This document shows positions 23,100 to 38,765 of a DNA stretch of 55,150 bases, one piece after another. Made by a program: the position numbers and the translations under genes. The stretch's first letter is position 1. Every line of letters begins with the position of its first letter. Source of the stretch: an uncultured Clostridia bacterium (GTDB lineage: Bacteria > Bacillota > Clostridia > TANB77 > CAG-508); contig CANQRS010000001.1 in NCBI GenBank assembly GCA_947626295.1, forward strand, positions 1-55,150, in the 5' to 3' direction. A model generated the notes under the pieces. That model had not been told where the DNA came from. It did not search any database and saw nothing but the letters and a program-made list of their open reading frames with translations.

Positions 23100-23117
23100 A
23101 CAGTTTTATTACCTCCA

Positions 23118-25808
23118 CTATTTCATTTTCTTTCTCATATTATTTAAAGTATTATTCATACTATCTGAAAATCCATTATTAGAATAATTAGTTGAATATT
23201 GGTATCCCCTTTTTGGTCTCTCCCTTGTATTTCTAGCTGGTAATAATGGATATACTACTGCAGCTAAATTGCTTAGAATATTTTGAAATTCTTTTGGATA
23301 TTTATCTACCGATATCTCACATTCAATTATCTCTTCTAAATATCTTTCATATACGTCCATATCAAAAGGTATCTCTATAGGTACAACAGCATTTCTATCA
23401 AATAATTCTGTCATAAATGACATCTCTGGGTCATTGTAAAATGCCATTCCGCCTACAATAGTCTTTGCTGTTACTCCCCTTATTCTTACAGACTTATTTA
23501 TAATTATCTTTATTTTATTTTTATCAATGATATCTTTTGCTTTTAAATCCCTTAAAAATGCTGTAAAAGGTTGTATTGTAAGCACGTCCATACTCTGAAC
23601 TAAATATATTTCTTGTGAATTTTCAAAATACTGTATTGGAGTATCAAAATCACAATCTATCAAAACTGCCGAATGATTCTTTATTAAGTTTTCAAGTATA
23701 GGACCTACATTTTCTATACTACTTTCTTGTGTTGGAGGTTCAGTATATACTGTTAAATTATTTTTAACCCTTATTCCCTCTGGATTACCATTTACTAAAC
23801 TTCTTACACTTCTCGTTGCTGTTTGTCTTAAATCTTCTTCATTTTTTGTATATATATAATACGCATTTTTGTTTTTAGTTGCATCTAGTATGGCTGTATC
23901 AATTCCAGCATCAGCTAAAATTTTAGCTATATTATTTACTATAAAAGATGTTCCATTTTTGCTTGTTCCAACAAAAGTCATTACCTTTTTGCTACTTGAC
24001 AATAAACTATTATATTCACTATAATCATAATCTTCAAACTCATTTTTCTCTAATGAATTTCTTTTTGTATATAAATCATCTGAATTTCTTTCTACTTTTT
24101 TATGATGATTAAACATAGGATTTGTTTTTGGCATTTCTCTTTGAATATTTTGTTTTTGAACAGGTTTTACTTCTTCAAATGCTTCATCTTCATCCTCATC
24201 GTCAAATCCAGGTAATTGATTTTCATTTTCCAAATCATCTAATGTTGGCAATGGTTCATCATCTTCATCATCTTCAAACCCTGGTAAAACCTCATCATCT
24301 GCCAATTCAGTAGAATCCATTGTTTCTTCGTCTTCCTCATCATCAAATCCCGGTAAAATATCATCTTCATCGTCATCATCTTTTAAATTATCATATCCTA
24401 ATAAATCGTCGTCATCATCATCTAAATCTTCAAAGCCTGGTAAAGTCTCGTCATCGTCCAAGTCATCAAATCCTGGTAATTTTTCTTCTTCCTGAGATGC
24501 TCTTTTAATCTCCTCTAATTTCCTTGCTTCTTCCCTATTTTTAGCTTCATATTCTTCCAAGTCATTTATAGCCGGCAATATTGCATTACCAACATTTGAT
24601 TCATTTTCATCATCATCATCAAATCCTGGCAAAGCAGAAGCCTCTGGTTGTTCTTCTGGTAACGGATTTTTTCTTGGTCTTCCCCTTTTCTTTGGAACCT
24701 TTACTTCATTTGTTGTTTCAGGTAATGGATTCTTTCTAGGCCTTCCTCTACCTCTTTTTTTAGGTGGTTCTGGTACAACTTCTACTTTTTCAGTTGTTTC
24801 CACATCTTCAAATTCTGGCATTGACTTTGTGTTATTATCTAAATTATTAACATTTGTCTCTACTTCTTCATCATCAAAATCATCAAACATACTATTATCT
24901 AAAATATCATCTTCAAAATCAACCTTGTCCTCTATTTTAGGTTTTAAAGAAGATTTCTTTTCTGGCTCTATTTTTTTAACTAATGTTTTTTCTAATCTTG
25001 ATGGAACTACTATTGGTCTACCGCTATTAGCTTGTTTATTAGTTAATAATTTTTCACTTGTTCCAGATAATGCTCCACCCTTTGAGTTTCCACCTGATTT
25101 TGCTGTACCTTTTCTTTTTCCAGTTAATCTTTGATATTCTGGAGAACCTTGTTCAAGTACATCTTTTATTTGTTCAGGTAATATTGAAATAATTATTCTC
25201 ATTTGCTTATCATTATATTGAGAAACTATATTTCTAAAACATTCGATATATCTTTCTTCATTTTTTCCAAGCCTTTTAAAATAGCTCAAAATATGTTGCA
25301 TTTCTTCTTCACTAACATCATCTATTTTTTCAGGTTGGTATCCTGCTTCGTCTGAGTCAATCCTATAATATGCTTTTGCCTCTTTTTTTAACCTAGGCTT
25401 ATTTATTAACTTACAAACTTGGTCTGTACTTCTATCATTACCAATTAAAGCATTATATATTCCTATACCAAATAGTTTAATCAAAAACTCTTCTGACTTC
25501 ATTCTTCTTTCTGAACCTATTAAAATAATTGGTATATCATTTCCCCTAGAGTTAGTTGCTTCATCAGTTATATTATCTAATTTTTCAAATATATATTTAT
25601 CTTTTTGTTCAAAGCTTGAACTTGTAAATTCTTCTAATTCTTCATCTATTACTATTCTATCGTATGTTTTATCTCTCTGTAACTCTTTTAATATTGCGTT
25701 AAAATAATACACATTTTTAAATGATATTATCTCCTTGTACTCCTTTTGGTATTTTCTTACTATAGACGATGAAACTTTTTCATCGTGTACCGCAAATAAA
25801 ACTTTCAT
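23118..25808 (-). CDS. 896-aa protein: receiver-like N-domain, two AT-hooks, acidic LPGF(D/E)D repeat array, C-terminal TadZ/ParA-like domain with deviant P-loop
   Basis: KKRGRGRPRKNPLP and KKRGRPRKNPLP; at least 6 LPGF(D/E)D repeats; VMTFVGTSKNGTSFIVNNIAKILA (no GK[ST] lysine) and VLIDCDFD. Confidence 0.6.
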   Translation of the reverse strand: MKVLFAVHDEKVSSSIVRKYQKEYKEIISFKNVYYFNAILKELQRDKTYDRIVIDEELEEFTSSSFEQKDKYIFEKLDNITDEATNSRGNDIPIILIGSERRMKSEEFLIKLFGIGIYNALIGNDRSTDQVCKLINKPRLKKEAKAYYRIDSDEAGYQPEKIDDVSEEEMQHILSYFKRLGKNEERYIECFRNIVSQYNDKQMRIIISILPEQIKDVLEQGSPEYQRLTGKRKGTAKSGGNSKGGALSGTSEKLLTNKQANSGRPIVVPSRLEKTLVKKIEPEKKSSLKPKIEDKVDFEDDILDNSMFDDFDDEEVETNVNNLDNNTKSMPEFEDVETTEKVEVVPEPPKKRGRGRPRKNPLPETTNEVKVPKKRGRPRKNPLPEEQPEASALPGFDDDDENESNVGNAILPAINDLEEYEAKNREEARKLEEIKRASQEEEKLPGFDDLDDDETLPGFEDLDDDDDDLLGYDNLKDDDDEDDILPGFDDEEDEETMDSTELADDEVLPGFEDDEDDEPLPTLDDLENENQLPGFDDEDEDEAFEEVKPVQKQNIQREMPKTNPMFNHHKKVERNSDDLYTKRNSLEKNEFEDYDYSEYNSLLSSSKKVMTFVGTSKNGTSFIVNNIAKILADAGIDTAILDATKNKNAYYIYTKNEEDLRQTATRSVRSLVNGNPEGIRVKNNLTVYTEPPTQESSIENVGPILENLIKNHSAVLIDCDFDTPIQYFENSQEIYLVQSMDVLTIQPFTAFLRDLKAKDIIDKNKIKIIINKSVRIRGVTAKTIVGGMAFYNDPEMSFMTELFDRNAVVPIEIPFDMDVYERYLEEIIECEISVDKYPKEFQNILSNLAAVVYPLLPARNTRERPKRGYQYSTNYSNNGFSDSMNNTLNNMRKKMK
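24200..24770 (-). repeat. Coding tandem repeats (LPGFDD units 24200-24640; duplicated AT-hook unit 24655-24770)
   Basis: Recurrent AAATCCTGGTAA-type units on the plus strand; duplicated GGTAAYGGATTYTTTCT..CCTTCC unit. Confidence 0.6.
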
Positions 25809-25814
25809 TCGTTT

Positions 25815-26225
25815 TTACTCCTTCCCTAACTTTACCACTACTGCAAATACTAATGGTAAAACTTGACAAATTATTGCTAAAGTAACTATAGCAACTATCA
25901 TTCCTAAACCTTTTTCTGCATTTTCTAAATGTCTTACACCTATTACTAATCTGTAAATCGAAGCTATAACTATTCCAAGAAAGCAAAATGGGATACTATA
26001 TATTTGTACTACGTGTAATATATATGCAGTAATACCATAAGCATCATTTCCATATTTTTGCTTATATTCCTCAATACTTTTAGCTTGTTGTTCTTTTATT
26101 TCTAGTAGATGACTTTCTGGTACTTGGCTTGTATTTTCTGCTGCATATACTGGCTTTGAATATACATTTAAAAATGCTACGAATATTGTTACAAATACTG
26201 TCATTATTAGTATCTTCTTTTTCAT
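25815..26225 (-). CDS. Small exported membrane protein (signal peptide plus 2 TM)
   Basis: MKKKILIMTVFVTIFVAFLNVYSKPVYA signal-like N-terminus; two C-terminal helices. Confidence 0.55.
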   Translation of the reverse strand: MKKKILIMTVFVTIFVAFLNVYSKPVYAAENTSQVPESHLLEIKEQQAKSIEEYKQKYGNDAYGITAYILHVVQIYSIPFCFLGIVIASIYRLVIGVRHLENAEKGLGMIVAIVTLAIICQVLPLVFAVVVKLGKE

Positions 26226-26339
26226 TTATTTTCCCCCTATTTTTAATCTACCTTCACTATTATTTTTTTCCTATATATCATACAATATTATTAAAAAAAT
26301 AGCAAGGTTTTATATCGATTTTTTTATTATTTTTTATTG

Positions 26340-27311
26340 TTACATTATTTTATCATACAAATACTCAATATGTTTATATACTGCATTTGCCCAATTTTTA
26401 TCAGAAGCATATCTTTTATTTATTGCAGATAAAGTTCGTCCATTATAATAATTACCTGTAGCAGTCTCTCCACCATATATCTTTGTTCCCGCAGGATTCA
26501 AGTAATATTTAACAAACACCCTAGCCAACAAATCTATAGATTCAGCATAATCATCAAATGTATATGCACCATTATAAGGATTTGAATCATAAGCTCCATA
26601 TCCAAACAAATTATTCTTAGTCATCGCTAATTTCGACGTTCCCCACGCACTTTCGTGTATACCAACTGCTGCAACAAATAATCCATTAATATTATATTCT
26701 TTTTCTATGTAATAAAAATATTTTGCATTATTCTCAAAAATCTTATTAACATCTTTACTATCAGTCAATGCTGTATTAAATTGCTCTAACGAAAATCCAC
26801 TAGGCTTATTTAACTGCATATTAAAACTTAGACCTACTTTCTTAGCCTTTTCCTCTCGTGTCAAGCGTTTCTTAGTTCCTACATCTATAAGCTTATTAAT
26901 TGATGACTTTACAACTACAGCAGAAACTTGCTCCTCTTTTACTAACTCGCCTTTTTCATTATACACTTTTTTTCTAGTTATCTCTTGAATTCCATTTCTT
27001 CCCTCTTGAGAAATCTGTGTTTCTCCTATGTATATATCTGGATTATTTCTATATTTTGTTATATATTCCAACTCAACTTCTTCTACCTCTAATTCTTCTC
27101 TATATCCAGCTGAATTTGAATTTTTTTGTATTATCTCATCTAAATCAACTTGAGTTGCATTACTTATCTTTACCTCTGGGCTTGTCTTTTCTTCAGTATA
27201 TGAATATGTTTGATTTTCTAGCCTTTCCAAGACAACAATTACAAATAAGCTGAAACAAATTATCATAATTATTAAAAATATATCTATTTTCTTTTTTTCT
27301 TTTGAACTCAT
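26340..27311 (-). CDS. G5-domain plus GH73 N-acetylglucosaminidase-type cell-wall hydrolase
   Basis: G5-like ISQEGRNGIQEITRKKVY...VVVKSSINKLIDVGTK; GIHESAWGTSKLA...NNLFGYGAYD glucosaminidase motif; start at MSSKEKK after AGGTGA. Confidence 0.7.
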   Translation of the reverse strand: MSSKEKKKIDIFLIIMIICFSLFVIVVLERLENQTYSYTEEKTSPEVKISNATQVDLDEIIQKNSNSAGYREELEVEEVELEYITKYRNNPDIYIGETQISQEGRNGIQEITRKKVYNEKGELVKEEQVSAVVVKSSINKLIDVGTKKRLTREEKAKKVGLSFNMQLNKPSGFSLEQFNTALTDSKDVNKIFENNAKYFYYIEKEYNINGLFVAAVGIHESAWGTSKLAMTKNNLFGYGAYDSNPYNGAYTFDDYAESIDLLARVFVKYYLNPAGTKIYGGETATGNYYNGRTLSAINKRYASDKNWANAVYKHIEYLYDKIM

Positions 27312-27328
27312 ATATATCACCTAAAATT

Positions 27329-27357
27329 ATTTTAATATTTATGTCTATTTTTGTCAA
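27329..27357 (-). promoter_or_regulatory. Sigma-A-type promoter of the hydrolase gene
   Basis: TTGACA (27357-27352) - 17 nt - TAAAAT (27334-27329). Confidence 0.5.
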
Positions 27358-27360
27358 GGA

Positions 27361-27387
27361 GTATTTTTTCGTTTGTGCCATTTTTTC
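27361..27387. repeat. 27-bp exact repeat GTATTTTTTCGTTTGTGCCATTTTTTC, copy 1
   Basis: Identical to 36625-36651; weaker similarity continues rightwards (TTTACATA..TTAAAATAT). Confidence 0.8.
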
Positions 27388-27592
27388 TTTCTTTTTCAAG
27401 CTTTTTACATAATTTATTATCATCAATATTTTTTAAAAATATTTTTAATCTTTCTTAATTTCCTAAATTTCCAATTTCCCTATAGTCAAAAATGGAAATT
27501 TGTGATATATTATTCATAGATTTTTTCATATCCTTTGATTGAGTTTGGGGTAAATTAATTATATCAAATTAGAAGCGAAAATATTCCTTCAA

Positions 27593-28231
27593 TTAATCTA
27601 TTTGTTCTAAATTAATCAATTCATTTTTTCTAAAAGTTAATTTTAATAAACATGGCGATTTTATATTCAATACTGTATCTTCTTTATAAACAAGTTTTAC
27701 ATCTTCATTTACTGTACACCAATTTAACAAAAAGAACTTTATTGAACCTCCGTGACTAATTACTGCCATTCTTTTTCCTTCGTAATCCCTAAGTATTTTG
27801 TCAAAAAATTTATTCATTCTTTCTCTAGTTTGTTCTGCACTTTCTCCATCAGACGTCCTAAAAGTTCTATCTAGCAATTGTTCTTGTGATGGGTCTCTTG
27901 TTTTCTTGTCCTTCATAAATTCTCCTAATTCCGTTAAATTTCCTAATTTTCTTTCACTTAAACTATTGTCTAAATTAAAAGTCAAATTATTTGCATAAGC
28001 AATATATTTTGCTGTAGCTTTAGCTCTAGCATAACTACTTGACCATATAATATCTAAATTCTCTAATTCATTATTTCTACTTAATTTTTTTGCTTGTTCT
28101 TCTCCTTCTATTGATAAGATTTCTTTTTCATTAATCATTTGAGAATCTTCACTTGTATTTCTAATACCATTTTCATTAATAGTTTCAGCATGCCTAACTA
28201 AATATATTATTGTATTTTTCACTTTGTTCAA
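27593..28231 (-). CDS. Histidine phosphatase (phosphoglycerate-mutase-like) family protein
   Basis: IYLVRHAET (RHG-type) and VISHGGSI motifs. Confidence 0.75.
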   Translation of the reverse strand: MNKVKNTIIYLVRHAETINENGIRNTSEDSQMINEKEILSIEGEEQAKKLSRNNELENLDIIWSSSYARAKATAKYIAYANNLTFNLDNSLSERKLGNLTELGEFMKDKKTRDPSQEQLLDRTFRTSDGESAEQTRERMNKFFDKILRDYEGKRMAVISHGGSIKFFLLNWCTVNEDVKLVYKEDTVLNIKSPCLLKLTFRKNELINLEQID

Positions 28232-28394
28232 CCCTCCTTTTTCTTTTTTATTATAGCAATATCGTCAATTATAGCTAGCTTTTATTCTAAATCTATTTGT
28301 AAAAAACTATAATAGAAAGAGCAATGCTGCTGGTGATTTAATTGAAAAAGCATTACGAGAAAAACATTTCTAAAGAAGATTTATGTAAAAAATA

Positions 28395-28435
28395 AATAGA
28401 AAAATCCAGTCATTACAAAACTGTTTTTTTCTATT
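28395..28435 (-). terminator. Hairpin terminator after thrS
   Basis: AATAGAAAAA / TTTTTCTATT stem with T-rich tail on the minus strand. Confidence 0.5.
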
Positions 28436-28457
28436 TTTTATTAGCATTGCTATTATT

Positions 28458-30413
28458 CTAATTTGCAATCTTACTTTCTATATCTCTATTTTTTATCTCA
28501 TTAAGTAACTGTTCCACAAATTCTTCAACTTTCATACTCTCCTGTGTAGCAACATTTCTATTTCTTACTGTAATTATTTTCTTTTCATATTCGTTATCTC
28601 CAATAACTATTGCATATGGTATTTTATTAATAATGGCTTCTCTAATTTTTTTTCCAAATGATTCATTACTATAATCGACTTCTACTCTTATTTCATTTTC
28701 TTTTAGTATTTTAGCAATTTTTTCTGAATATTCTATATGTTTTTCTGAAATTGGTAATACCCTAACTTGAACTGGAGATAACCAGGTAGGTAATATCCCC
28801 TTAAACTGCTCTAATAGTAATGCTAAAAATCTCTCATATGAACCAAGTATAGCTCTATGAACCATAACTGGTATTTGTTTTTCGCCATTTTCATCGACAT
28901 AATATAATCCAAATCTTTTAGGAGTTGAAAAATCTACCTGAACAGTTGGAATTTGTATTTCTCTTCCTAAAGCATCTGTAAACATAAAATCTAGTTTTGG
29001 ACCATATAAAGCTGCTTCTCCTTCACACCACTTTGCTTCAAGCTTTAATTCATCTGAAACCTCTTGTAACATTTTTTCACATAAGTCCCAATCATCTTTA
29101 TTTCCTATATATTTCTCTGGATGCTCATAATCTCTTACTGACAAAGAAACCCAATGGTTTTTCCATAATCCCATTTTCGTATAAAAATCCCTGATTATAT
29201 TACACATATTTATAACTTCATCTTTTACTTGATCTATTCTACAAAATGAATGCCCATCTTCAATAGTAATTGCATAAACTCTTGATAATCCTCCAACTGA
29301 ACCTGGCAACTCTGCTCTATACTGTTTGTCAGATTCCATATACCTAATTGGTAAATCTTTATAACTTCTCATCTTTGATGCATATATTTGAGTATGGTGT
29401 GGACATTGAACAGGTTTTAATACGAACTCATGACCTTTAGGAGAGTTTACTCTAAATAATTCATCATTAAATTTTTGTGCATGCCCTGATGTTTCAAATA
29501 AGCTTATATTAGCAAGAGATGGACAACTTACTTTTTCAAAGCCATAATTTCTACATATTTTTTCTATTTCCTTTTGTAATTCATCTTTTATTATTGTACC
29601 TTTGGGAGTATATAAAGGTAATCCACCTCCTACATAGTCTGAAAAACAGAATAAATCTAATTCCTTTCCAATTTTCCTATGATCTCTACTTTTAGCTTCT
29701 TCCAACCTTTCTAAATATCCTTCTAATTCTTTTTTCTTAGGAAATGAAATTCCATAAATTCTTTGTAAAACTTCTCTTTTTTCATCTCCTTTCCAATATG
29801 CACTTGAAGATGAAAGTAACTTTACAAATTTCACTTTACCTGTACTTAATAAATGCGGTCCAGAACATAAATCAATAAATTCGCCTTGTTTGTAAAAAGA
29901 TATTTCGTCTTTCTCTGGTATTTCTTCAAGTAATTCTAATTTATATTTTTCCTTTGTTTCATTTATCATTTTTAAGGCTTCTTCTTTTGTTAAAGTGAAT
30001 CTTTCAATAGGAATATCTTCTTTTATTATTTTATTCATTTCTATTTCAATTCTTTCTTTATCTTCATCTGAAAAGGCTTTTTCTACTTCAAAATCATAAT
30101 AAAAGCCATTATCAATAGCTGGTCCAATCGCTAGTTTATATTCAGGAAACAATCTTTTAACCGCTTGAGCCATAATGTGAGAACTTGTGTGCCAATAAGC
30201 TTTTTTACCTTCTAAATCTTCATCATTAAATGTATGAATTACCAAATTGCAATCCTCTTGTAACTCAAATCTTAAATCTTTAATTTCGCCATTTACTTCT
30301 CCACAAGTTGCATTTCTCATTAATCCTTCACTTATTTTTTTTGCAATATCAATTATTGAAGTTCCTTTTTCTACTTCAATAATCGAATTATCTTTTAATG
30401 TAATTTTTAACAT
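28458..30413 (-). CDS. thrS: Threonyl-tRNA synthetase, full length (TGS + N2 editing + catalytic + anticodon-binding)
   Basis: 651 aa; TGS-like N-terminus; editing motifs HTSSH and DLCSGPH; Zn ligands in QCPHH, EDGHSF, VMVHRA; preceded by a Thr T-box. Confidence 0.9.
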   Translation of the reverse strand: MLKITLKDNSIIEVEKGTSIIDIAKKISEGLMRNATCGEVNGEIKDLRFELQEDCNLVIHTFNDEDLEGKKAYWHTSSHIMAQAVKRLFPEYKLAIGPAIDNGFYYDFEVEKAFSDEDKERIEIEMNKIIKEDIPIERFTLTKEEALKMINETKEKYKLELLEEIPEKDEISFYKQGEFIDLCSGPHLLSTGKVKFVKLLSSSSAYWKGDEKREVLQRIYGISFPKKKELEGYLERLEEAKSRDHRKIGKELDLFCFSDYVGGGLPLYTPKGTIIKDELQKEIEKICRNYGFEKVSCPSLANISLFETSGHAQKFNDELFRVNSPKGHEFVLKPVQCPHHTQIYASKMRSYKDLPIRYMESDKQYRAELPGSVGGLSRVYAITIEDGHSFCRIDQVKDEVINMCNIIRDFYTKMGLWKNHWVSLSVRDYEHPEKYIGNKDDWDLCEKMLQEVSDELKLEAKWCEGEAALYGPKLDFMFTDALGREIQIPTVQVDFSTPKRFGLYYVDENGEKQIPVMVHRAILGSYERFLALLLEQFKGILPTWLSPVQVRVLPISEKHIEYSEKIAKILKENEIRVEVDYSNESFGKKIREAIINKIPYAIVIGDNEYEKKIITVRNRNVATQESMKVEEFVEQLLNEIKNRDIESKIAN

Positions 30414-30439
30414 AATAAAATAAAACCTCCTTTTGATTA

Positions 30440-30706
30440 TTATATATTGTTAACAGCACTCCTAAAAGTACGTTCAACAATACTTTTAGGAGTGCTGTTA
30501 TATAGCACGGTTCCATCCTAAATTTAACTTAATTTTAGAATATGATAAATCTTACCCATATTATAATTATAATATTTTGGAGAGCTAGTTTTTCAAATAG
30601 ATTTACATAAATTGAATTTCAGCTTATATTCAATCCTCTCTGTAAGCAACCCCTATTTTACTTTTTCTCTCATTTATCATAATTATCATAAATTATATAA
30701 TATAAC
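30440..30706 (-). promoter_or_regulatory. T-box riboswitch leader, probable Thr (ACU) specifier
   Basis: Minus strand shows AGAGA and AGUA boxes, GAAAAACUAG specifier-like loop (ACT = 30589-30587), T-box-like AGGATGGAACCGTGC (about 30503-30525), and a 19-bp terminator stem 30452-30499. Confidence 0.7.
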
Positions 30707-30712
30707 TGATTA

Positions 30713-30742
30713 TATTTTAACTCTTTTTTTTTTTATTGTCAA
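30713..30742 (-). promoter_or_regulatory. Promoter of thrS
   Basis: TTGACA (30742-30737) - 18 nt - TAAAAT (30718-30713). Confidence 0.5.
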
Positions 30743-30788
30743 TATTTTTTCACTATTTTTTATTTTTAAAATTTTTTTAATAATTAAA

Positions 30789-30824
30789 AGAGAGAAACTT
30801 TCTGTAACTAGAAAATTCCTCTCT
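30789..30824 (-). terminator. Intrinsic terminator after thrS2
   Basis: 15-bp imperfect stem AGAGAGGAATTTTCT/AGAAAGTTTCTCTCT then TTTTAATT on the minus strand. Confidence 0.6.
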
Positions 30825-30846
30825 AAATAAGTAGGTCACATTACCC

Positions 30847-32571
30847 CTACTCCTTACGACTAATTTTTTCTTTAATCCACTCAATAAATTCATTAACTGA
30901 CATTTTACTGAGCTCTTGACTACTATGAAGTTCTCTAATGCTGACTAGACCTTCATCAACTTCTTGTTTGCCAACAATAAGCATATAAGGAATCTTTTGA
31001 CCTCTAGCTTCACGGATTTTGTAACCGAGTTTCTCATTTCTTAAGTCAACTTCCGAACGAATCCCTTCTTTCTCAAGTTTCTGGTTTACTTCATTAGCAT
31101 AATCACAAAACGAAATGGAAATTGGAAGAATCCTTACCTGAATTGGTGCAATCCAAAGTGGAAATTCACCATTAAAATGCTCTAATATGATTCCCAAAAA
31201 TCTTTCCAATGAGCCAAATATGACTCTATGGATAATTATTGGACGTTCATTTTCGCCATTTGCATTCACATATTCAAGGTCGAATTTTATCGGTAATTGG
31301 AAATCCAGCTGTATCGTACCCATCTGCCATTCTCTACCCAAACAATCTTTCATTTGGATATCAATTTTAGGTCCATAAAAAGCACCATCTTTATCTTTAA
31401 TGGGATAATTATTATCACCATATAAATCATCCAGTACTCTTCTAAGTTCGTCTTCAGCTTTATTCCAAATCTCAATATCTCCCATAAAATCATCTGGTCT
31501 GGTAGAAAGTGAAGCCTTATATTCAAGTCCAAATGCCTTATAAAACATATCGGCAATTTCTAAAATATTCTTTATTTCACTACCAATTTGAGACTTAGAG
31601 ATAAAATTATGAGAATCATCCTGACGGAACATTCTTGTTCTTAACAGTCCATTAAGTTGTCCTGATTTTTCATTGCGGTGAATCACATCAATATCACTCA
31701 ATCGCAATGGCAACTCTCTATAACTACGTTTCTTCATTTTGTAAATCATAATTGCATTTGGACAACTCATAGGTTTCAACGCTTGCTCATTTCCATCACC
31801 ATCCTGTAAGACATACATATCTTCTTTGTAATGGTCCCAGTGTCCAGATTGTTTCCATAACTGGCTACTATTAACTTGCGGTGCGGAAAATTCTAAATAT
31901 CCCAGTTTCTTATGCTCCTTACGCCAGAAATCAATCAAGTTGTTGTATAATATCCAACCTTTAGGAAGCCAATATGGCATACCTGGTGCTGAATCTATGA
32001 AGGAGAAAAGTTCAAGTTCTCGCCCCAATTTGCGATGGTCTCTGTTTTTCATGTTCTCTAAATTTTTAAGATATTCATTCATCTCATCAGAACTCTGAAA
32101 AGCAATACCATAAATTCTCTGTAAAGATTCGTTGTTTTCGTCTCCCTTCCAATATACTGCAGATGAAGATAAAAGTTTTAGTGCCTTAATTTTACTTATT
32201 GCCAAACATTCAGACTGTTCAAACACATCAATAAAATTTCCATGCTTGAAAATAAAAACATTCTCTTCCTCTTGCATATCAATCAACTCAGCTTTGTAAT
32301 TTTCTCCTTTCTCCAACATAAAGCTTTGTACTTCAGCCTTTGGTTTAGAAATAATCTCTACTACTTTGCTATGTTTACAAATCCGTTTCATCTTTTGTTC
32401 AATCTTTCTCATATCTTCTTCAGAAAACGGCTTTTCAATAGCAAAATCGTAATAGAACATATCTCTATTTAAACCACAATCTGCAAGTTTTGATGAAGGG
32501 AACAGTTCTTTAACAGCCTGAGCCATAACTCTCGAAGCCACAATTAAAATATGGCTTTTCTGTACCAACAT
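30847..32571 (-). CDS. Second, N-terminally short threonyl-tRNA synthetase paralog (no TGS domain, editing residues replaced)
   Basis: 574 aa; aligns to ThrS from residue ~70; IVASR for HTSSH, DVFEQSE for DLCSGPH; catalytic SCPNA, RQDDSHNF, IIIHRV retained; GGAGG RBS. Confidence 0.85.
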   Translation of the reverse strand: MLVQKSHILIVASRVMAQAVKELFPSSKLADCGLNRDMFYYDFAIEKPFSEEDMRKIEQKMKRICKHSKVVEIISKPKAEVQSFMLEKGENYKAELIDMQEEENVFIFKHGNFIDVFEQSECLAISKIKALKLLSSSAVYWKGDENNESLQRIYGIAFQSSDEMNEYLKNLENMKNRDHRKLGRELELFSFIDSAPGMPYWLPKGWILYNNLIDFWRKEHKKLGYLEFSAPQVNSSQLWKQSGHWDHYKEDMYVLQDGDGNEQALKPMSCPNAIMIYKMKKRSYRELPLRLSDIDVIHRNEKSGQLNGLLRTRMFRQDDSHNFISKSQIGSEIKNILEIADMFYKAFGLEYKASLSTRPDDFMGDIEIWNKAEDELRRVLDDLYGDNNYPIKDKDGAFYGPKIDIQMKDCLGREWQMGTIQLDFQLPIKFDLEYVNANGENERPIIIHRVIFGSLERFLGIILEHFNGEFPLWIAPIQVRILPISISFCDYANEVNQKLEKEGIRSEVDLRNEKLGYKIREARGQKIPYMLIVGKQEVDEGLVSIRELHSSQELSKMSVNEFIEWIKEKISRKE

Positions 32572-32728
32572 TTTAAATTTCCTCCATTAAGATTTTTAAT
32601 TAATGTTTTCAATGTACTCCTTCGTGTTTAACATTTTAATTAGTCATTTTTTCCTCCTTAAAAATTATTTTACATAGTTGCTTTTGCTATTAAATGTGAA
32701 AAGGAGTAAATACTATGCATTGCTATTA
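32572..32728 (-). promoter_or_regulatory. thrS2 5' leader with two mini-ORFs (MTN*, MLNTKEYIENIN*) and an anti-SD element; not a T-box
   Basis: AAGGAGG-6nt-ATG ACT AAT TAA (32647-32636); ATG at 32634 to TAA 32596; ACUCCUU (32707-32701) complementary to AAGGAGG (32659-32653) and AAGGAGU (32622-32616). Confidence 0.45.
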
Positions 32729-32757
32729 ATTATAGCATTTTTTAGTGTAAAAGTCAA
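32729..32757 (-). promoter_or_regulatory. Promoter of thrS2 (extended -10)
   Basis: TTGACT (32757-32752) - 17 nt - TGcTATAAT (32734-32729). Confidence 0.6.
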
Positions 32758-32920
32758 CATAAAATCAAAAAATCAAAAAAATTTTTTATACATATGTGCA
32801 AGATTATTTTAATGAGGATAGATTAATGATAATTCAATCCGATATGAAGGAGGATACCAATTAACAAGAGATAAAAGTTATAATGCAATAATCAGGTATG
32901 ACAGTATTAATAACATTAGT

Positions 32921-32959
32921 AAAGCTATAAAATACAGATTTATCTGATTTTATAGCTTT
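32921..32959. terminator. Long hairpin between the ATP-grasp gene and thrS2
   Basis: AAAGCTATAAAATACAGAT / ATCTGATTTTATAGCTTT near-perfect inverted repeat; weak U-tract. Confidence 0.45.
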
Positions 32960-32984
32960 ATTGATTTCATACATATCATAAACT

Positions 32985-34286
32985 CTATGTAATAAATTTA
33001 AAATTATTTAATCCCTTTATTACTCTTTTTTCTAATTCATTAAAACTTATATCATTTCCCTTATATACTATATGTCCATTTGATCTACAACTTTTTGGGG
33101 CTCTTACAGCCATTTCATCAACATCGTCATATATTTGATGTTCACAATAATATGCATCCCAAATTGCAATAGGTTCTCCTATAATTTTCTTTATAACTCC
33201 TTCTTTTTCAGCCCACAAACAATGTGTTATTGTATTTATATGAGTATCTCGATCAATTTTAGGTTCATTTCCCATTGATAAATCTATTAAAATTTCTAAA
33301 TAATCATTTCCAGTAGAATGTAATAGTGATTTGTATATTGGTCCTCCTCCTAATCTAGCTCCAAATTCTAACAATACTAAATCATCTTGAAAAGTTCTAA
33401 ATTCTGTGTGTAATACATAACAACCATCTCCAAGTTTTTTATGAATTTTAGAAACATATTCTTTTGCTTTGTCTTGCAATTTTTTTGGTATCCTAGTTGG
33501 TGTAGACCATATATACTCTTCAAAATATGGTCCGTTAGAAGGAATAGGTTTGTCATGTATTGTTAATACTATTGTCTCTCCTTTATAATAAATACTTTCT
33601 ACACTTATCTCTCCAATTTTAAATGGAAAGTTTGTTTCAAACATCATTTCTCCACCAATGATTTCTTCTGCTATAAATGGAACATTTCCTTTGTCGTCGG
33701 CATATTTTAAATATAAAGCATCATTTTGATATTTTTCATTTGCAATTTTAACTAAATCATCAATTCCTTCTAGTAATTCGTTTTTATTCTCAAATCGCTT
33801 GACTAATGTTGAGCCACCTCCTATTGTCGGCTTTACAACTACAGGAAATTTTAAGTTATCACATTTAGTGCTTAAATCTCCATTTAATATTTCAAATCTA
33901 GGAACAGGAATATCTAAATCTTTGCAGAATTTTCTCATTTCGTATTTGTTTCTTCCAATTCTTACTATATTTTCATCTGGTCCTATTAAATTAAACTCCT
34001 TGCAAAGTAAACTATGTAATGGTACGCACATTTCTGAAACATTAATTATTCCATCTGGACTACCTATTTCTTTTATTTTAGAAACTATTTCATTAATATT
34101 TTCATACACTTTTTTCATAGGTACTTTTAAAATATTATCTACATAATCTTTTTGAAAATATGTATTTGTATTTTCGTCAAGCACCAATGTTATTATATAT
34201 TTATCTCTTAATTTTTTTAATTTTCTTAGATGCTCCAATCTGCTTGGGTTATGCGAATATAATACAATTATATGTTTCTTTTTCAT
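32985..34286 (-). CDS. ATP-grasp ligase (L-amino-acid-ligase-like architecture)
   Basis: FPVVVKPTIGGGSTLVKR, AEEIIGGEM, LLEFGARLGGG motifs; AGGAGGAAAAATAAA RBS. Confidence 0.7.
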   Translation of the reverse strand: MKKKHIIVLYSHNPSRLEHLRKLKKLRDKYIITLVLDENTNTYFQKDYVDNILKVPMKKVYENINEIVSKIKEIGSPDGIINVSEMCVPLHSLLCKEFNLIGPDENIVRIGRNKYEMRKFCKDLDIPVPRFEILNGDLSTKCDNLKFPVVVKPTIGGGSTLVKRFENKNELLEGIDDLVKIANEKYQNDALYLKYADDKGNVPFIAEEIIGGEMMFETNFPFKIGEISVESIYYKGETIVLTIHDKPIPSNGPYFEEYIWSTPTRIPKKLQDKAKEYVSKIHKKLGDGCYVLHTEFRTFQDDLVLLEFGARLGGGPIYKSLLHSTGNDYLEILIDLSMGNEPKIDRDTHINTITHCLWAEKEGVIKKIIGEPIAIWDAYYCEHQIYDDVDEMAVRAPKSCRSNGHIVYKGNDISFNELEKRVIKGLNNFKFIT

Positions 34287-34440
34287 TTTATTTTTCCTCC
34301 TAATAATAAAAATTTTTTAATCTTTCCATTCCCTTATATATTTATTTCATCAATTTTATTTCTAACTGTATTTGTATAGTGATTAGTTTCATTGTTTAAA
34401 ACTATTATAGAAGATTCCTTTATTTTATCGCTAATTTTTA

Positions 34441-35661
34441 TTATTTAAATATATCAGATGACAATCCATTATCTAAAACCTTTTTTACTTTCAAGCAAGA
34501 AGGATCTGAACCTACTAAACACTCATATTTACTGCAACCATAATTTAGTAATGTCTGATATACTGTACCTCTACACCCTCCATAACATTCTTTTTTCTTA
34601 AATAAATCACAATTTTTACAATCTCCTTGAATATATTTAGTTAAATTTCTAATAATTTTTAAATCTTCATTTTCTAATATGTCAATTAATCTTTTTTCAT
34701 TCATATTTCCCATAATCAAATCAATTCCCGGACAAGGAGCAATATTTCCATCAGCTTTCAAATCTACTCTAATTAGGTTTTGATAACAAGTTCCTGCAAC
34801 ATATGGCGGTTTTATCTCCCAATGTTCATAACCTTCTGAAATATCATTATCTAATATTTTTTCAAACAATTTGTTCATTTCTGATTTCGTAATTTGTAAA
34901 TTAGGATTATTTCTTGCAAAGCCTTGTAATTTCATAACTTCTATATGGCTATATATGTTCAATGCTCTAAATTGTTGAACTAATTCTGGTAAATATTTAA
35001 TATTATTTCTAGCAATAATTGATTCTACACCTAATCTTGTACATCCATCTAAAATTTCTTTATTGAATCCTATTTCTATAAGATTTTTAATAAGTTTCTT
35101 TTGTTGTTCATAAACAGTCACTGCATCTTGCTTTCTTCCCGATAAATTTTTTTGTATATTACAAAATTCTGAATATCTCTCATCCGTATTATCTACCATT
35201 GGAACATTCAATTTAACTAAGACACATATGCCTAAATCATATATTCTTTTTAAATCATCATATTTCCATAGTGTTCCATTAGTTACAAGTGTAGTACATA
35301 TTCCTTTATTTACACAATATTCTATTATATTAAATATATCTGGTGAAGTTGCAGGTTCAAAAGTTCCATTTATCGTTATAGTATTTATACCTATTTCTAT
35401 TGCTTGATCTATCCAGCTTTTCGTCTTTTTTGCCCACTCTTTATCCTTATATGGATCTATTCCATTATAATATAAATTTTCTTTGATTTCTGGTCTATCT
35501 GAAAGTTCAGAGCTACCTGCATAGCAATATGGACAAGCCCAATTACATGCTACTGGAGTATTTACTTTTAATCCTAATCTTAATAATTTATTTTCTTCAG
35601 CAATTTCATAATATTTCTCTTTAGGGGTTTCAAAACTTAGTAATTTCGGTATAGTTTTCAT
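34441..35661 (-). CDS. Radical SAM enzyme with C-terminal SPASM/twitch-like Cys cluster
   Basis: CNWACPYC (CX3CX2C) near the N-terminus; CKNCDLFKKKECYGGCRG and further Cys near the C-terminus; AAAGGAG RBS. Confidence 0.75.
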   Translation of the reverse strand: MKTIPKLLSFETPKEKYYEIAEENKLLRLGLKVNTPVACNWACPYCYAGSSELSDRPEIKENLYYNGIDPYKDKEWAKKTKSWIDQAIEIGINTITINGTFEPATSPDIFNIIEYCVNKGICTTLVTNGTLWKYDDLKRIYDLGICVLVKLNVPMVDNTDERYSEFCNIQKNLSGRKQDAVTVYEQQKKLIKNLIEIGFNKEILDGCTRLGVESIIARNNIKYLPELVQQFRALNIYSHIEVMKLQGFARNNPNLQITKSEMNKLFEKILDNDISEGYEHWEIKPPYVAGTCYQNLIRVDLKADGNIAPCPGIDLIMGNMNEKRLIDILENEDLKIIRNLTKYIQGDCKNCDLFKKKECYGGCRGTVYQTLLNYGCSKYECLVGSDPSCLKVKKVLDNGLSSDIFK

Positions 35662-35689
35662 GCTATTCTCCTTTATATATATTATTATA

Positions 35690-36428
35690 TTAAAATTTGA
35701 TTATTTTTTCCCAACTTAATTCTTCTTTTCCAAAATATCCATAATTTATTGTTTTTTGTAAATTCAAATATTTTATAATTCCAATAGGGGTTAAATCAAA
35801 TCTTTTCTTTACTTTATCAATAATTTCATCTTCTGGTATATTATTAGTTCCAAATGTATTAATATAAATTGATATTGGTTCTTTAATTCCTATTGAATAA
35901 GATACCTATAATTCACATCTGTCAGCATATTTATTTGCCACAACATTTTTTTGCAATATGTTGCATCATATATACTGTACTTCTATCTACCTTGCTAGCC
36001 TCTTTACTTGAAAAAGCTCCTCCACCATATTTTGCATATCCACCATAAGTATCTACTATTATTTTTTCCTGTAAGCCCTGTATCTCTTAAAAGTCCACCA
36101 ATAACAAATCTTCCTGTTGGATTAATTAATATTTTTGTGTTTTTATCAAAATATTCTTTTGGAATAACTTTTCTTTATTATATCGTTTTTCATTCTATTA
36201 ACATCTGTACCTTCTTCATACTGATTAGATATTAAAATTGTTTCAATTCTTTTAGGTTTCCCATTTTCATACTCAACCGTTACTTGTATTTTTCCATCAG
36301 GTCTTAAATATTCCCACTCTTTTGTTTTTCTAACTTCTGCTATTTTTTTGATAACATATGTAGTCACATAATTTGTCTGGATGTCCTTCTGTAACACTTT
36401 CTGATGTAAAATAATAGTTTTTTTGCAT
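35690..36428 (-). pseudogene. metK: S-adenosylmethionine synthetase (metK) pseudogene
   Basis: [22 protein letters not shown] then a jump to ..[28 protein letters not shown] (about 95 aa missing), at least 4 frame changes at A-runs and an in-frame TAG in C-E-L-*-VSYSIG; C-terminal ..FGKEELSWEKI recognisable. Confidence 0.85.
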
Positions 36429-36611
36429 TTCCTCTCCTTCCTTTCTTTTTTATAAAAAAGAACAAAGCTCTAAATGCTTTGCTCACAAAAAGGCACAATG
36501 GCACTGTAAATTACATAATAGTAAGCTGTTTTTTACACTTTGTGATTTCATTGCCATCATCACCTTCCTTCAATATGCTTACATTATATCAGATTTTAAC
36601 TACTTTGTAAA
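36429..36611 (-). promoter_or_regulatory. metK promoter plus structured attenuator leader (class not recognised)
   Basis: TTTACA (36611-36606) - 17 nt - TATAAT (36588-36583); P1-like GTAAGC...GCTTAC; terminator GAGCAAAGC/GCTTTGTTC (36484-36460) plus T6; TCACAAA/TTTGTGA alternative pairing. Confidence 0.5.
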
Positions 36612-36624
36612 GATTCTTTATTTT

Positions 36625-36651
36625 GTATTTTTTCGTTTGTGCCATTTTTTC
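36625..36651. repeat. 27-bp exact repeat GTATTTTTTCGTTTGTGCCATTTTTTC, copy 2
   Basis: Identical to 27361-27387; lies about 150 bp beyond the stop of the transposase remnant. Confidence 0.8.
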
Positions 36652-36797
36652 ACTTTTCGTTGTTAAAAATTTACATATTCTATTTTAAAATATGCTTTAC
36701 TGTAAATTATATTTTTGATTTTTCCTCTTTTCATATTTTACCAGTATAAAAGGGCACAATATCTCTATGCCAGATTTACATAATCTTGATAAATACT

Positions 36798-37116
36798 TTA
36801 TGCAACTAAGCTTCTTATATTCTTTTGTTTACTCTTTATATGTAGCATTACAATAAATGTTAAATTTAGCATTAACTCCATTTTCTTTTGTCCTCTTATG
36901 AAATGGTTATTAAACATATAATCTCTATCTATTCTTCCATTTAGTCTTTCTATTCCGTTCTCTTTTTATATTTAGTTTTAAATCTTTTACTATCTCTTGC
37001 TATTGGCATAAATATTCTATAATCTGTTTCTAATGGTATCCTATATATTTTTTTCTTGTTTTTTCTCTTGTATACCTTAAACTATTATTTGCTTTATCAT
37101 ATCCTAGATATTTCGT
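36798..37116 (-). pseudogene. C-terminal remnant of a DDE transposase (IS4/IS5-like), frameshifted
   Basis: Three frames give ..LRYTREKTRKKY / IYRIPLETDYRIFMPIARDSKRFKTKYKKR / GIERLNGRIDRDYMFNNHFIRGQKKMELMLNLTFIVMLH..*; no N-terminal part. Confidence 0.6.
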
Positions 37117-37896
37117 CTATTGTGGAGTCAAACCTCCATAATTTTTAGTAAACCACTCGTTATAATCAAATGCCTCCAAAGTTTTTGGCAATCCGTAATT
37201 AGCTCCAAAAGTATCTACCGTTATGGATTTTATTTTTACATCTTCTTTAGGTGTTGAAGCCTCTGTATTGCTATCTTCTTCTTTCTTTAACTCTACACTT
37301 GCTATTTTCTTAACAACATCCATTCCCTCTATTACTTTTCCAAAACCTGCATAATGACCACTTAAAGATGTATAATCATTTGAAGTCATTATAAAAAATT
37401 GAGTTCCTCCTGAATTATATGACTCTTCTGTTAATGATGGTGCATAAGAAGTATAATCAATTCTTCCCATTGCTAATGTACCTTCTGTTAAATTCAAATC
37501 ATTTTGTGTAAATCCATTATCTACAAATTCACCTTTTATCGTATATTTCGTTTCATCATCGTTTCCATATAAATTTCCTAATGTTGCACTTCCTGTACCA
37601 TCACCATTTATATCTCCACCTTGTATCATAAAATCTTTTACAACTCTATGAAATTTTAACCCATCATAAAACTTATTATTTATTAAAGCTATAAAGTTTG
37701 CCACAGTATTAGGTGCCTTATCTGGATACAATTCCATCTTTACAGTTCCAAAATTTTCAACCTCCATTGTTACTATAGGATTTTGTATATTTACAGTCTG
37801 TTTTTTATAATATCCATAGCACAAAAATCCTATTACTCCTAATATTATTATTAAAATTATTATAGTTACTATTTTCCATTTTGTTTTTTGTTCCAT
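37117..37896 (-). CDS. Membrane-anchored cyclophilin-type peptidyl-prolyl isomerase
   Basis: FHRVVKDFMIQGGD, GTQFFIM motifs; N-terminal TM; start at MEQKTKW after GGAGGAGAAAGGTA. Confidence 0.85.
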   Translation of the reverse strand: MEQKTKWKIVTIIILIIILGVIGFLCYGYYKKQTVNIQNPIVTMEVENFGTVKMELYPDKAPNTVANFIALINNKFYDGLKFHRVVKDFMIQGGDINGDGTGSATLGNLYGNDDETKYTIKGEFVDNGFTQNDLNLTEGTLAMGRIDYTSYAPSLTEESYNSGGTQFFIMTSNDYTSLSGHYAGFGKVIEGMDVVKKIASVELKKEEDSNTEASTPKEDVKIKSITVDTFGANYGLPKTLEAFDYNEWFTKNYGGLTPQ

Positions 37897-38072
37897 TACC
37901 TTTCTCCTCCCATATATGCTTTTTTTCAACTTTTTATATCTTATATTAATTTTTTCCCATTGTCAATACATAAATCCAAAATTGTCACATCTTTATTGAC
38001 AAATCAATTCGTAACTTTTTTCAATCTTCTCTCATAAAATATAAATATACAAATATGAAAGGAGACTTTTTT

Positions 38073-38754: not shown

Positions 38755-38765
38755 AAGAAAGTGTC

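Follow-up and report, generated by a model that had tools for sequence, protein, structure and literature searches.

A threonyl-tRNA synthetase paralog predicted to lack proofreading, encoded beside thrS in an uncultured Clostridia bacterium

Background

Why should a bacterium that already encodes a proofreading threonyl-tRNA synthetase (ThrRS) keep, directly beside it, a second ThrRS from which the editing residues have disappeared? The question is raised by a stretch of 55,150 nucleotides from an uncultured Clostridia bacterium (GenBank assembly GCA_947626295.1, contig CANQRS010000001.1, positions 1 to 55,150; hereafter the window), in which two ThrRS genes, the only ones in these 55 kb, stand head-to-tail on the minus strand according to the open reading frame (ORF) list:

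30847..32571, minus strand: thrS2, a 574-aa ThrRS paralog with a remodelled N2 domain, a class II core and an anticodon-binding domain, and no TGS domain
28458..30413, minus strand: thrS, a 651-aa full-length ThrRS (ORF, Pfam, PDB search and alignment)

Both genes had been placed at these coordinates by a previous sequence-only reading of the window, and both products are TIGR00418 equivalogs (652.4 bits for ThrS and 636.3 bits for ThrS2, cut-off 383.65). From the comparisons reported here it is very likely that thrS2 encodes an active accessory ThrRS without TGS or proofreading, and that it has a control region separate from that of the adjacent thrS, which is T-box-controlled and encodes a proofreading enzyme. 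Duplicated synthetases are already known; what is new here is a ThrRS clade in which the editing residues, the TGS domain and the T-box have been lost, and literature searches returned no description of this clade. It amounts to a natural proofreading knockout, i.e. a bacterial ThrRS whose editing pocket was fully rewritten and in which the domain holding that pocket was retained under selection. The ThrS/ThrS2 pair may thereby offer a tractable system for accuracy trade-offs, for cross-proofreading between paralogs and for the retention of a dead editing domain.

Editing site and catalytic core of ThrS2

The domain content of ThrS2 was assessed with Pfam, which recovered the class II core (147 bits) and the HGTP anticodon-binding domain (PF03129, 89.1 bits). 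No TGS domain (PF02824) was matched and no N1 residues were aligned, the N-terminus of ThrS2 being the equivalent of ThrS residue ~67. In BLASTP (39% identity over 572 aa) residue 76 of ThrS pairs with residue 11 of ThrS2, i.e. ThrS2 starts some 65-70 residues later, in keeping with the earlier estimate of about 70. The tRNA_SAD profile (PF07973) scored 17.9 bits, under its cut-off of 24, and only profile positions 22-44 were matched.

Alignment by MAFFT with the Escherichia coli ThrRS gave WHTSSH and DLCSGPH as the editing motifs of ThrS and LIVASR and DVFEQSE at the same positions of ThrS2. The pairing first made by eye was thus reproduced and the editing residues are truly lost from ThrS2. 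The sites concerned are the following (E. coli numbering for the equivalents, from the alignments):

32530..32544, minus strand: ThrS2 residues 10-14, I-V-A-S-R, the H73-x-x-x-H77 site, both His gone
32209..32229, minus strand: ThrS2 residues 115-121, D-V-F-E-Q-S-E, the D180-x-C182-x-G-x-H186 site, with D kept and C, G and H gone
31603..31680, minus strand: motif 2 of ThrS2, HRNEKSGQLNGLLRTRMFRQDDSHNF, including the equivalents of R363, E365, D383 and H385

In a 124-sequence alignment, the equivalents of H73, H77, C182 and H186 are kept in 108 of the 109 sister sequences and replaced in all 11 members of the clade to which ThrS2 belongs, in which the D180 and K156 equivalents are still present. 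The replacements are I, N or D at 73, R or K at 77, F (10/11) or I at C182 and E, N, S, D or I at H186; G184 became Q in 11/11, and the substitutions P96G, I98N and G101M are likewise fixed throughout the clade.

The synthetic half of the protein has a different fate. The catalytic zinc ligands (C334, H385 and H511) and the threonine and ATP residues of motifs 2 and 3 are intact in ThrS, in ThrS2 and in all 11 clade members, as had been read from the sequence for the core ligands of the two proteins. The residues C334, R363, E365, R375, F379, Q381, D383, H385, Y462, K465, Q479, T482, Q484, H511, S517 and R520 are invariant in the clade, the amino-acid pocket of ThrS2 is fully canonical, and its anticodon domain retains the residues invariant across the family. 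Motif 2 of ThrS2 was indeed found to be more canonical than that of ThrS; it carries two clade-specific changes, F374L and V376T/A/S, which adjoin the conserved ATP-contact residues R375 and F379. When the catalytic halves were compared with the E. coli and human enzymes, ThrS2 (~375 bits) came out nearer than ThrS (~303 bits), and the PDB matches of ThrS2 are 1qf6 and 6vu9 (~470 bits).

Modelling of the structure, which the sequence-only reading had proposed for N2, was carried out with AlphaFold2 from a 58-sequence alignment. The ThrS2 model has a mean predicted local distance difference test (pLDDT) score of 88.7, with values of 88-97 over the N2 region (residues 11-140), whose fold is predicted to be kept, and it superposes on chain A of the E. 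coli ThrRS-tRNA complex 1qf6 with a template modelling (TM) score of 0.92 and a root-mean-square deviation (rmsd) of 2.5 A over 572 columns. The HxxxH/CxGxH motif of ThrRS editing domains is regarded as invariant and its Cys as essential to proofreading (PMC12003907; PMC4787780). Because the catalytic, ATP, zinc and anticodon residues are intact, the catalytic domain evolves under a ratio of nonsynonymous to synonymous substitution rates (dN/dS) of 0.02-0.03, the TM score is 0.92 and HxxxH/CxGxH is lost, we infer with good support that aminoacylation of tRNA(Thr) is retained in ThrS2 and post-transfer editing lost, in line with what had been expected from the sequence.

Evolution of the ThrS2 clade

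The ThrS2 clade comprises 11 protein clusters (73-100% identity), all of 573-574 aa and all free of frameshifts. In the catalytic-domain tree it is monophyletic and nested, on a short stem, in the large clostridial (type-B) ThrRS group, both with 50/50 bootstraps. Compared with four orthologues, ThrS2 has a dN/dS of 0.06-0.11 over its whole length; the catalytic domain is lower (0.02-0.03) and N2 higher (0.11-0.28), all of these being rough values as dS is saturated. Mean pairwise identity inside the clade reaches 92% in the catalytic domain and 69% in N2, and the latter holds 31 of the 50 positions that are conserved at >=95% in the sisters yet changed in the clade. As many of the replaced positions share one new residue clade-wide, the N2 pocket appears to have been remodelled a single time and conserved afterwards. 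From these substitution patterns, ThrS2 has the profile of a maintained gene under strong purifying selection and not of a relic.

The nearest relatives of ThrS2 (~60% identity) are nearly all full-length or 586-aa TGS-less enzymes. These sisters keep WHTTSH and DLCxGPH (108/109) and are the sole ThrRS gene of their locus, and most of their genes have a T-box core motif 100-200 nt upstream. The clusters P0016, P0018 and P0023 form the full-length sister group of the clade; of the full-length relatives examined for context, P0023 is the closest, and it adjoins efp, plsX and mutS, i.e. housekeeping genes. TGS-less ThrRS of ~586 aa are common, seemingly as the sole enzyme, in related Clostridia, yet they keep the editing residues. 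Within the group of ThrS2, loss of TGS is hence ordinary on the sequences compared and loss of the editing residues is not. The sequence-only reading had considered that enzymes of the ThrS2 type might prove to be the normal sole ThrRS of related taxa; the editing-dead clade was never seen alone, and a second ThrRS gene lies beside thrS2 in every contig long enough to show it. In GTDB species genomes, only sisters at <=61% identity occur among the matches listed.

The composition of thrS2 sets it apart from its surroundings. Its G+C content at third codon positions (GC3) is 0.290, vs 0.184 +/- 0.036 for 47 other ORFs of the window, and its orthologues in four other lineages (loci L007, L095, L001 and L089) have GC3 values of 0.25-0.30, vs 0.10-0.21 for their neighbours; the sister ThrRS genes are at ~0.12. 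Across lineages, ThrS2 proteins share 73-86% identity, whereas the adjacent ThrS proteins share only 49-55%. Both features fit a foreign-looking accessory gene with a history of its own.

The resident enzyme ThrS

ThrS has the complete domain set in Pfam, i.e. TGS (45.6 bits), tRNA_SAD (51.9 bits), the class II core and the anticodon domain PF03129 (89.7 bits). All its editing residues are present and its best PDB match is the Staphylococcus aureus ThrRS 1nyq (573 bits). The relevant features are:

30231..30407, minus strand: TGS domain of ThrS
30177..30191, minus strand: HTSSH
29853..29873, minus strand: DLCSGPH

Its motif 2 departs from the usual form by Y, I and I at positions 377, 379 and 381. 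We considered whether ThrS might be a defective copy and rejected this, the identical residues being found in 109/114 homologues, Candidate Phyla Radiation bacteria included; the oddity is a trait of the lineage rather than damage. The editing residues are all kept in 109/114 ThrS homologues.

The partner ThrS of the L007/L092 lineage reads WNTTSC and DLCMGPQ, with H73, H77 and H186 lost (N, C and Q), and the full N-C-D-C-Q pattern occurs only in clusters P0135 and P0136 among the 114 homologues. Both ThrRS copies of that lineage therefore have degenerate editing sites. The two genes are:

L007:12119-14074 and L092:8431-10386: degenerate full-length T-box thrS (clusters P0135 and P0136)

A separate observation concerns the C-terminal ~110 residues of the window ThrS (DYSNESFGKKIRE..., 28458..28790, minus strand). 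This anticodon-binding domain resembles that of a 600-aa ThrRS paralog of locus L099 (L099:3839-5641) and is unlike its counterpart in the thrS of L099 and L097, orthologous though these genes otherwise are; dN is 0.45 in this domain vs 0.04 in the catalytic domain. The pattern suggests gene conversion between tandem paralogs.

Regulation of thrS2 and thrS

The control elements located around the two genes are listed below.

32729..32757, minus strand: thrS2 promoter, TTGACT-17-TATAAT with a TG extension, 11/12 matches, position kept in orthologous loci
32572..32728, minus strand: thrS2 leader, ~150 nt, kept throughout the clade (5-7 orthologous leaders aligned)
30789..30824, minus strand: intrinsic-terminator-like hairpin and T-run directly after thrS2, the sole terminator-like site in 28300..33100
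30714..30742, minus strand: thrS promoter, TTGACA-17-TAAAAT, 11/12 matches
30485..30677, minus strand: leader of thrS with a Thr-specific T-box (full-length RF00230 match)
30587..30589, minus strand: specifier ACU of this T-box
30506..30518, minus strand: its T-box sequence
30434..30514, minus strand: its terminator/antiterminator hairpin

Among the sigma-70 matches in 28300..33100 (minus strand), these two promoters rank highest. Since these best promoters and the sole terminator-like site fall where separate units need them, thrS2 and thrS are taken, on sequence grounds, to be separate transcription units.

It had been claimed that a T-box precedes thrS only. No T-box was found upstream of thrS2 in the Rfam search, and this part of the claim stands; the match upstream of thrS is weaker than had been stated, RF00230 scoring 46.4 bits (gathering score 93; E 3.5e-9) in the 461-nt search only. 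No T-box reached the Rfam gathering score, and none appeared at E<=10 in an 8.5-kb search either. Upstream of thrS, L007, L095, L097, L099 and L001 share the 13-mer T-box GGATGGAACCGTG, the specifier GAAA-ACU-A and the hairpin, and conservation across six loci, including the distant L001, extends to the T-box sequence AGGATGGAACCGTG, GAAA-ACU-A (a threonine codon), the AGAGA/AGUA elements and the hairpin; in L001 the T-box precedes a nucleoside triphosphatase (NTPase)-thrS pair. We accept the thrS T-box as a probable one on this sub-threshold match together with the conserved motifs. The terminator hairpin at 30434..30514 has an 18-bp stem, with no clear U-run in the window and a U-run in L007 and L001; it also gave spurious miRNA matches in Rfam.

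The thrS2 leader is real, yet unexplained. Its invariant runs are CCUUUU, then UGUAAA..UUUUUAAGGAGGAA, ACUAAU and ACAUUGAAA. It contains an internal perfect Shine-Dalgarno (SD) sequence, AAGGAGGAA, followed by a 3-codon ORF, AUG ACU AAU UAA, whose start codon is present only in group A (defined below) and L109. No Rfam family was matched in a 231-nt search, and a scan of JGI metagenomes with the leader pattern returned one genuine thrS2 locus and seven chance ribosome-binding-site matches. In RNAfold, the 5' part ACUCCUUUU pairs with the true SD of thrS2 in the minimum free energy (MFE) structure of 4/6 sequences; in a fifth, the centroid shows it. This pairing suggests that the SD is sequestered, and the invariant CCUUUU could pair with either SD. 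RNAalifold recovered only the CCUUUU:AAGGAGG pairing and no covariation, and folding energies were no better than those of shuffled sequences (z-scores ~0).

Three candidate mechanisms for the leader were tried and dropped. A hand-drawn 5' helix, UUACAC/GUGUAA, falls out of register in some sequences. A mimic of the anticodon arm, as in the E. coli thrS operator, was suggested by the conserved UGUAA but has no enclosing stem. A threonine-sensing leader peptide AUG ACU AAU UAA would start with AAG in groups B and C and has AUU as second codon in L109.

Genomic setting and neighbouring genes

In the direction of transcription, the locus reads as follows around the two ThrRS genes.

37117..37929: cyclophilin, first of the locus genes listed here
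35693..36425, minus strand: metK pseudogene, frameshifted, residues ~43-135 missing
34441..35661, minus strand: radical S-adenosylmethionine (SAM)/SPASM enzyme, 406 aa (Pfam)
32985..34286, minus strand: ATP-grasp_4 protein, 433 aa, L-amino-acid-ligase type (Pfam)
32921..32959, minus strand: hairpin after the ATP-grasp gene, AAAGCTATAAAAT...ATTTTATAGCTTT, between that gene and thrS2 (read from sequence)
27593..28231: histidine phosphatase, after thrS

The metK relic, directly upstream of the radical-SAM gene, was found by tblastn as three pieces in different frames. The hairpin after the ATP-grasp gene has analogues in L007 and L095 and, having no T-run, was left unscored by the terminator scan. 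The product of the ATP-grasp gene matches PF13535 (55.6 bits), in the PDB it comes closest to two L-amino acid ligases, BL00235 (E 1.7e-12) and BacD (E 2e-10), and several of its homologues carry PF18603. The family is rare and patchy (Bacillus, Vibrio, Sorangium, Cystobacter, Erwinia).

The window has a GC content of 28% and nearly every gene on one strand. As it carries FtsEX, a PcsB-like hydrolase, a CtpB-type protease, KsgA, RdgB, RuvX, PepF, SpoVT and rubrerythrin, it is chromosomal DNA of a low-GC spore-forming Firmicute, neither plasmid nor phage. A mobile-element origin was considered and rejected: megablast of 20000..44000 against plasmids and phages gave a single match of 146 bp, in metK, and the surroundings are chromosomal housekeeping genes. 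No dedicated tRNA(Thr) gene was found near thrS2 in the window or in related loci.

Elsewhere in the window, a prophage-like segment occupies 1..10162 (Siphovirus Gp157, G39P loader-inhibitor, AAA_24, DUF669; integrase at 9167..10162), and a second tyrosine recombinase lies at 19083..20060 on the plus strand. Two ORFs of 896 aa and 776 aa (23118..25808 and 50579..52909, minus strand) have no Pfam match, nor has a 220-aa ORF (54428..55090, minus strand), which shows the window maximum of GC3 (0.34) and of C-ending codon use (0.51).

The loci bearing thrS2 fall into three groups. Group A consists of the window, L007/L092-94 and L095/96, with the order radical SAM/SPASM, ATP-grasp, thrS2, T-box thrS. 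These four genes co-diverge at 80-91% identity, with a dN/dS of 0.08 for the radical-SAM and ATP-grasp genes; the ATP-grasp gene is syntenic in L007, L092 and L096 (86-91% identity) and the radical-SAM gene in L007 and L092 (83%). No conserved small ORF that could encode a precursor peptide for the radical SAM/SPASM enzyme was found upstream of it in the window or L007.

Group B (L001-6) belongs to an abundant gut organism and shows, in this order, a T-box, an NTPase gene, thrS (643 aa), thrS2, a 38-aa ORF and a thiazole/oxazole-type (TOMM) cluster. The latter, directly downstream of thrS2, is a cluster for a ribosomally synthesized and post-translationally modified peptide (RiPP):

L001:12597-19436: group B RiPP cluster, with the 38-aa ORF, a leader-binding protein, YcaO, a nitroreductase-type dehydrogenase, an SbtM-like radical SAM/SPASM enzyme and a 678-aa protein without family

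In group C (L089), thrS2 is followed by an intact metK, then by the gene of a 592-aa ThrRS with intact editing motifs and, further downstream, by genes for a pyridoxal-phosphate enzyme, a racemase, an AsnB-like enzyme, a methyltransferase, a Ddl-like ligase and a 3-deoxy-D-arabino-heptulosonate 7-phosphate (DAHP) synthase. The partner ThrRS is T-box-controlled and editing-competent in group B and in most of group A; that of group C is editing-competent and no T-box motif was detected there.

Relatives with the same type of thrS as the window but no thrS2 have radical-SAM enzymes and dehydrogenases upstream of thrS, and L097 also a 445-aa gene product resembling aminoacyl-tRNA synthetases (aaRS). 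In L099 (2019-7935) the row is a 448-aa aaRS-like protein with an HGTP anticodon domain, a Trigger_N fragment, the 600-aa TGS-less ThrRS mentioned above and a T-box thrS. This 600-aa enzyme, of a different lineage from ThrS2, reads RNTTSR and DVCNGEY at the editing positions; here, too, a ThrRS beside thrS has lost its editing site, in the same position and independently.

The closest named homologues of the window radical-SAM and ATP-grasp genes stand together in Bacillus sp. SM2101 (L115, JAEUFG010000022.1, 1-13113), in an 11-gene cluster (60% identity for the ligase and 55% for the radical-SAM enzyme). This cluster also contains YcaO, TfuA, a ThiF-rhodanese protein, four ATP-grasp genes in all, an aminotransferase and a major facilitator superfamily (MFS) exporter, and is probably an uncharacterised natural-product cluster for a peptide or an amino acid.

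Possible roles of ThrS2

On the proposed course of events, ThrS2 would derive from an ordinary, editing-proficient, mostly T-box-controlled clostridial ThrRS lineage, and would have lost on the way the TGS domain and the four editing residues, with the N2 fold kept, while the T-box gave place to a strong promoter and a new leader. The cell would then hold two separately wired enzymes, ThrS2 supplying Thr-tRNA(Thr) under its own control. T-box genes are throttled while their tRNA is charged and induced as charging fails. By this established logic, thrS would be held low as long as ThrS2 keeps tRNA(Thr) charged, and would be turned on when charging drops.

What such an arrangement is for can be answered tentatively. 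We rank first, at a probability of roughly 0.4 with the predicted activity and loss of proofreading included, the reading that ThrS2 is a target-duplicate immunity or resistance enzyme, because of its foreign composition, the loss of the T-box, the biosynthetic neighbours in three groups and the changes F374L and V376T/A/S. ThrS2 would go on working when a compound directed at ThrRS, or a threonine analogue, impairs the resident enzyme. Such a compound could be made by the neighbouring radical-SAM and L-amino-acid-ligase genes or be met in the gut, and, with a second, proofreading ThrRS at hand, the loss of editing would be tolerated or a secondary effect. The radical-SAM and ligase pair is adjacent to thrS2 and co-diverges with it in group A, the same pair lies within an obvious biosynthetic cluster in Bacillus, and genes of biosynthetic type are also the neighbours in groups B and C. 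A second ThrRS as immunity gene has a precedent in ObaO.

Several points weigh against resistance. The neighbour sets are unrelated among groups A, B and C, and the sole constant neighbour is another ThrRS gene. In the window, thrS2 is not co-transcribed with the radical-SAM/ligase pair, a hairpin and its own promoter intervening, and the SM2101 cluster with the same pair has an MFS exporter and no ThrRS. The neighbouring genes have no known product, and no inhibitor is known from them. The resistance substitutions of ObaO and those against borrelidin are absent from ThrS2, in which G463, L489 and H309 are unchanged. By analogy with ObaO, which keeps all substrate-contacting residues, resistance would not need the loss of editing. 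In the L007/L092 lineage the partner ThrS, having lost H73, H77 and H186, cannot supply editing. The raised GC3 of thrS2 may also reflect expression level instead of foreign origin. The suggestion of the sequence-only reading, that a resistance or biosynthetic paralog fits best, was hence borne out in part: the radical-SAM/ligase pair, the codon outlier and the motif-2 changes favour it, and the separate transcription unit, the differing neighbours and the lack of known substitutions do not.

Should resistance hold, the locus would be a lead to a new natural product that targets ThrRS and is made by gut commensals; it would also reveal a new mechanism of resistance for an enzyme already validated as an antibiotic target. 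A bolder version appears rather unlikely: ThrS2 would be the immunity determinant for a new ThrRS-directed antimetabolite of spore-forming gut Firmicutes, a dipeptide-type Trojan horse whose warhead would be made by the radical SAM/SPASM enzyme and attached by the L-amino-acid ligase. The thrS2 leader would then be the switch, a new regulatory RNA through which inhibition of the resident ThrRS induces the immune enzyme. The leader is in any case a candidate new cis-regulatory RNA, and the locus would gain in interest if the neighbours made a ThrRS-directed compound or if the leader proved to be such an RNA.

The main rival to resistance, somewhat unlikely in our estimation, is a division of labour that involves no inhibitor. 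ThrS2 would be the everyday, cheap, non-proofreading enzyme, and the T-box would raise the proofreading ThrS only under threonine scarcity, with tRNA(Thr) uncharged and mischarging favoured by the Ser/Thr ratio; Ser-tRNA(Thr) would then be cleared by ThrS in cis, in trans or in heterodimers. This explains best why thrS2 is paired with a second ThrRS in every long contig, whatever the other neighbours, and the independent TGS-less degenerate paralog upstream of the T-box thrS of L099 suggests that the arrangement recurs. The near-consensus extended -10 promoter and raised GC3 of thrS2 are compatible with high expression, and trans-editing between paralogs has a precedent in Anabaena T1/T2 (PMC4787780). 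However, editing is unlikely to come from the L007/L092 partner ThrS (N, C and Q at 73, 77 and 186), it is hard to see what a main enzyme without editing would gain the cell, and the foreign composition of thrS2, together with the stronger conservation of ThrS2 than of its partners across lineages, fits a mobile accessory gene better.

A stress back-up of the Anabaena T2 kind, active under conditions that disable ThrS (e.g. metal limitation) and with impaired editing as a side effect, is improbable, although the closest functional precedent is precisely an editing-impaired second ThrRS induced under zinc limitation (PMC4787780) and thrS2 does have its own, non-T-box control region. In T2 the impairment comes from a 20-aa insertion, C182 and H186 being present, whereas ThrS2 lacks both the insertion and these residues; neither a metal-regulator box nor a metallochaperone gene was seen near thrS2, and the catalytic Zn ligands of ThrS2 are unchanged.

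Slightly less probable still is a biosynthetic role, in which ThrS2 would feed an aminoacyl-tRNA or adenylate, perhaps non-cognate and editing-sensitive, to neighbouring enzymes. Against it, L-amino acid ligases work without tRNA, thrS2 forms a transcription unit of its own, with neighbours that are not conserved between lineages, and the amino-acid pocket of ThrS2 is completely canonical. The loss of editing would here be directly useful, and tRNA-dependent natural-product enzymes are an established class (PMC12945691). Biosynthetic-type genes are near thrS2 in all three groups, and related loci have extra aaRS-like genes adjoining radical-SAM enzymes and dehydrogenases.

Least credible is a redundant duplicate in decay, bound to become a pseudogene after relaxed selection removed editing and TGS: editing sites are eroded in one lineage's partner ThrS and in the L099 paralog too, the nearby metK pseudogene shows local decay and editing sites have reportedly degenerated in small-genome, host-associated Mollicutes (Li et al. 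2011, PNAS), but the dN/dS of ThrS2 (0.06-0.11 overall, 0.11-0.28 even in N2), the 11 clusters without a frameshift, the many N2 replacements fixed clade-wide and the conserved promoter and leader largely refute it.

Comparison with known systems

The cyanobacterium Anabaena sp. PCC 7120 also has two differently regulated ThrRS, the accurate T1 and the editing-impaired T2, and there too the accurate copy may cover for the impaired one (Rubio et al. 2015, PMC4787780). The lesions differ: T2 has a 20-aa insertion in N2 with the equivalents of C182 and H186 kept, whereas in ThrS2 there is no insertion and the four editing residues and TGS are gone. So does the control, T2 being Zur-controlled and induced by low zinc and thrS2 having an unclassified RNA leader; in Anabaena the impaired copy is the inducible one, and here it is the accurate, T-box-controlled copy.

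ObaO (obafluorin) and BorO-type enzymes (borrelidin) resemble ThrS2 as second, divergent ThrRS beside a housekeeping one, near biosynthetic genes and with conserved catalytic residues. Resistance in ObaO maps to G463S, with L489M also present, and borrelidin resistance to H309, L489 and fourth-site residues (PMC11252418, PMC4389257). Neither editing nor truncation was found mentioned in the main text of the ObaO preprint. Unlike these enzymes with their resistance substitutions, ThrS2 retains the ordinary residues at 463, 489 and 309.

Bacillus subtilis, with ThrS and ThrZ, is another Firmicute with two ThrRS genes and with T-box control of ThrRS expression. ThrZ is full length and itself T-box regulated, whereas ThrS2 is truncated, editing-dead and without a T-box. 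The sequence-only reading had set ThrS2 apart from a simple back-up of the ThrZ kind, and this distinction is upheld, ThrS2 being neither full length nor T-box regulated.

The closest relatives of ThrS2 besides P0016, P0018 and P0023 are the clostridial ThrRS of ~586 aa (~60% identity), many of which also lack TGS. They differ from ThrS2 in keeping WHTTSH and DLCxGPH, in being mostly T-box-controlled and in being the only ThrRS of their locus.

Aminoacylation without a functional cis-editing site is finally known from yeast mitochondrial MST1, crenarchaeal ThrRS-cat and the degenerate Mycoplasma ThrRS. MST1 and ThrRS-cat have no N-terminal domains (PDB 3ugq and 3a31 match the core only), whereas ThrS2 keeps an N2 domain that is predicted to be well folded and is under purifying selection; and none of the three shares its compartment or organism with another synthetic ThrRS, whereas ThrS2 is always the second copy.

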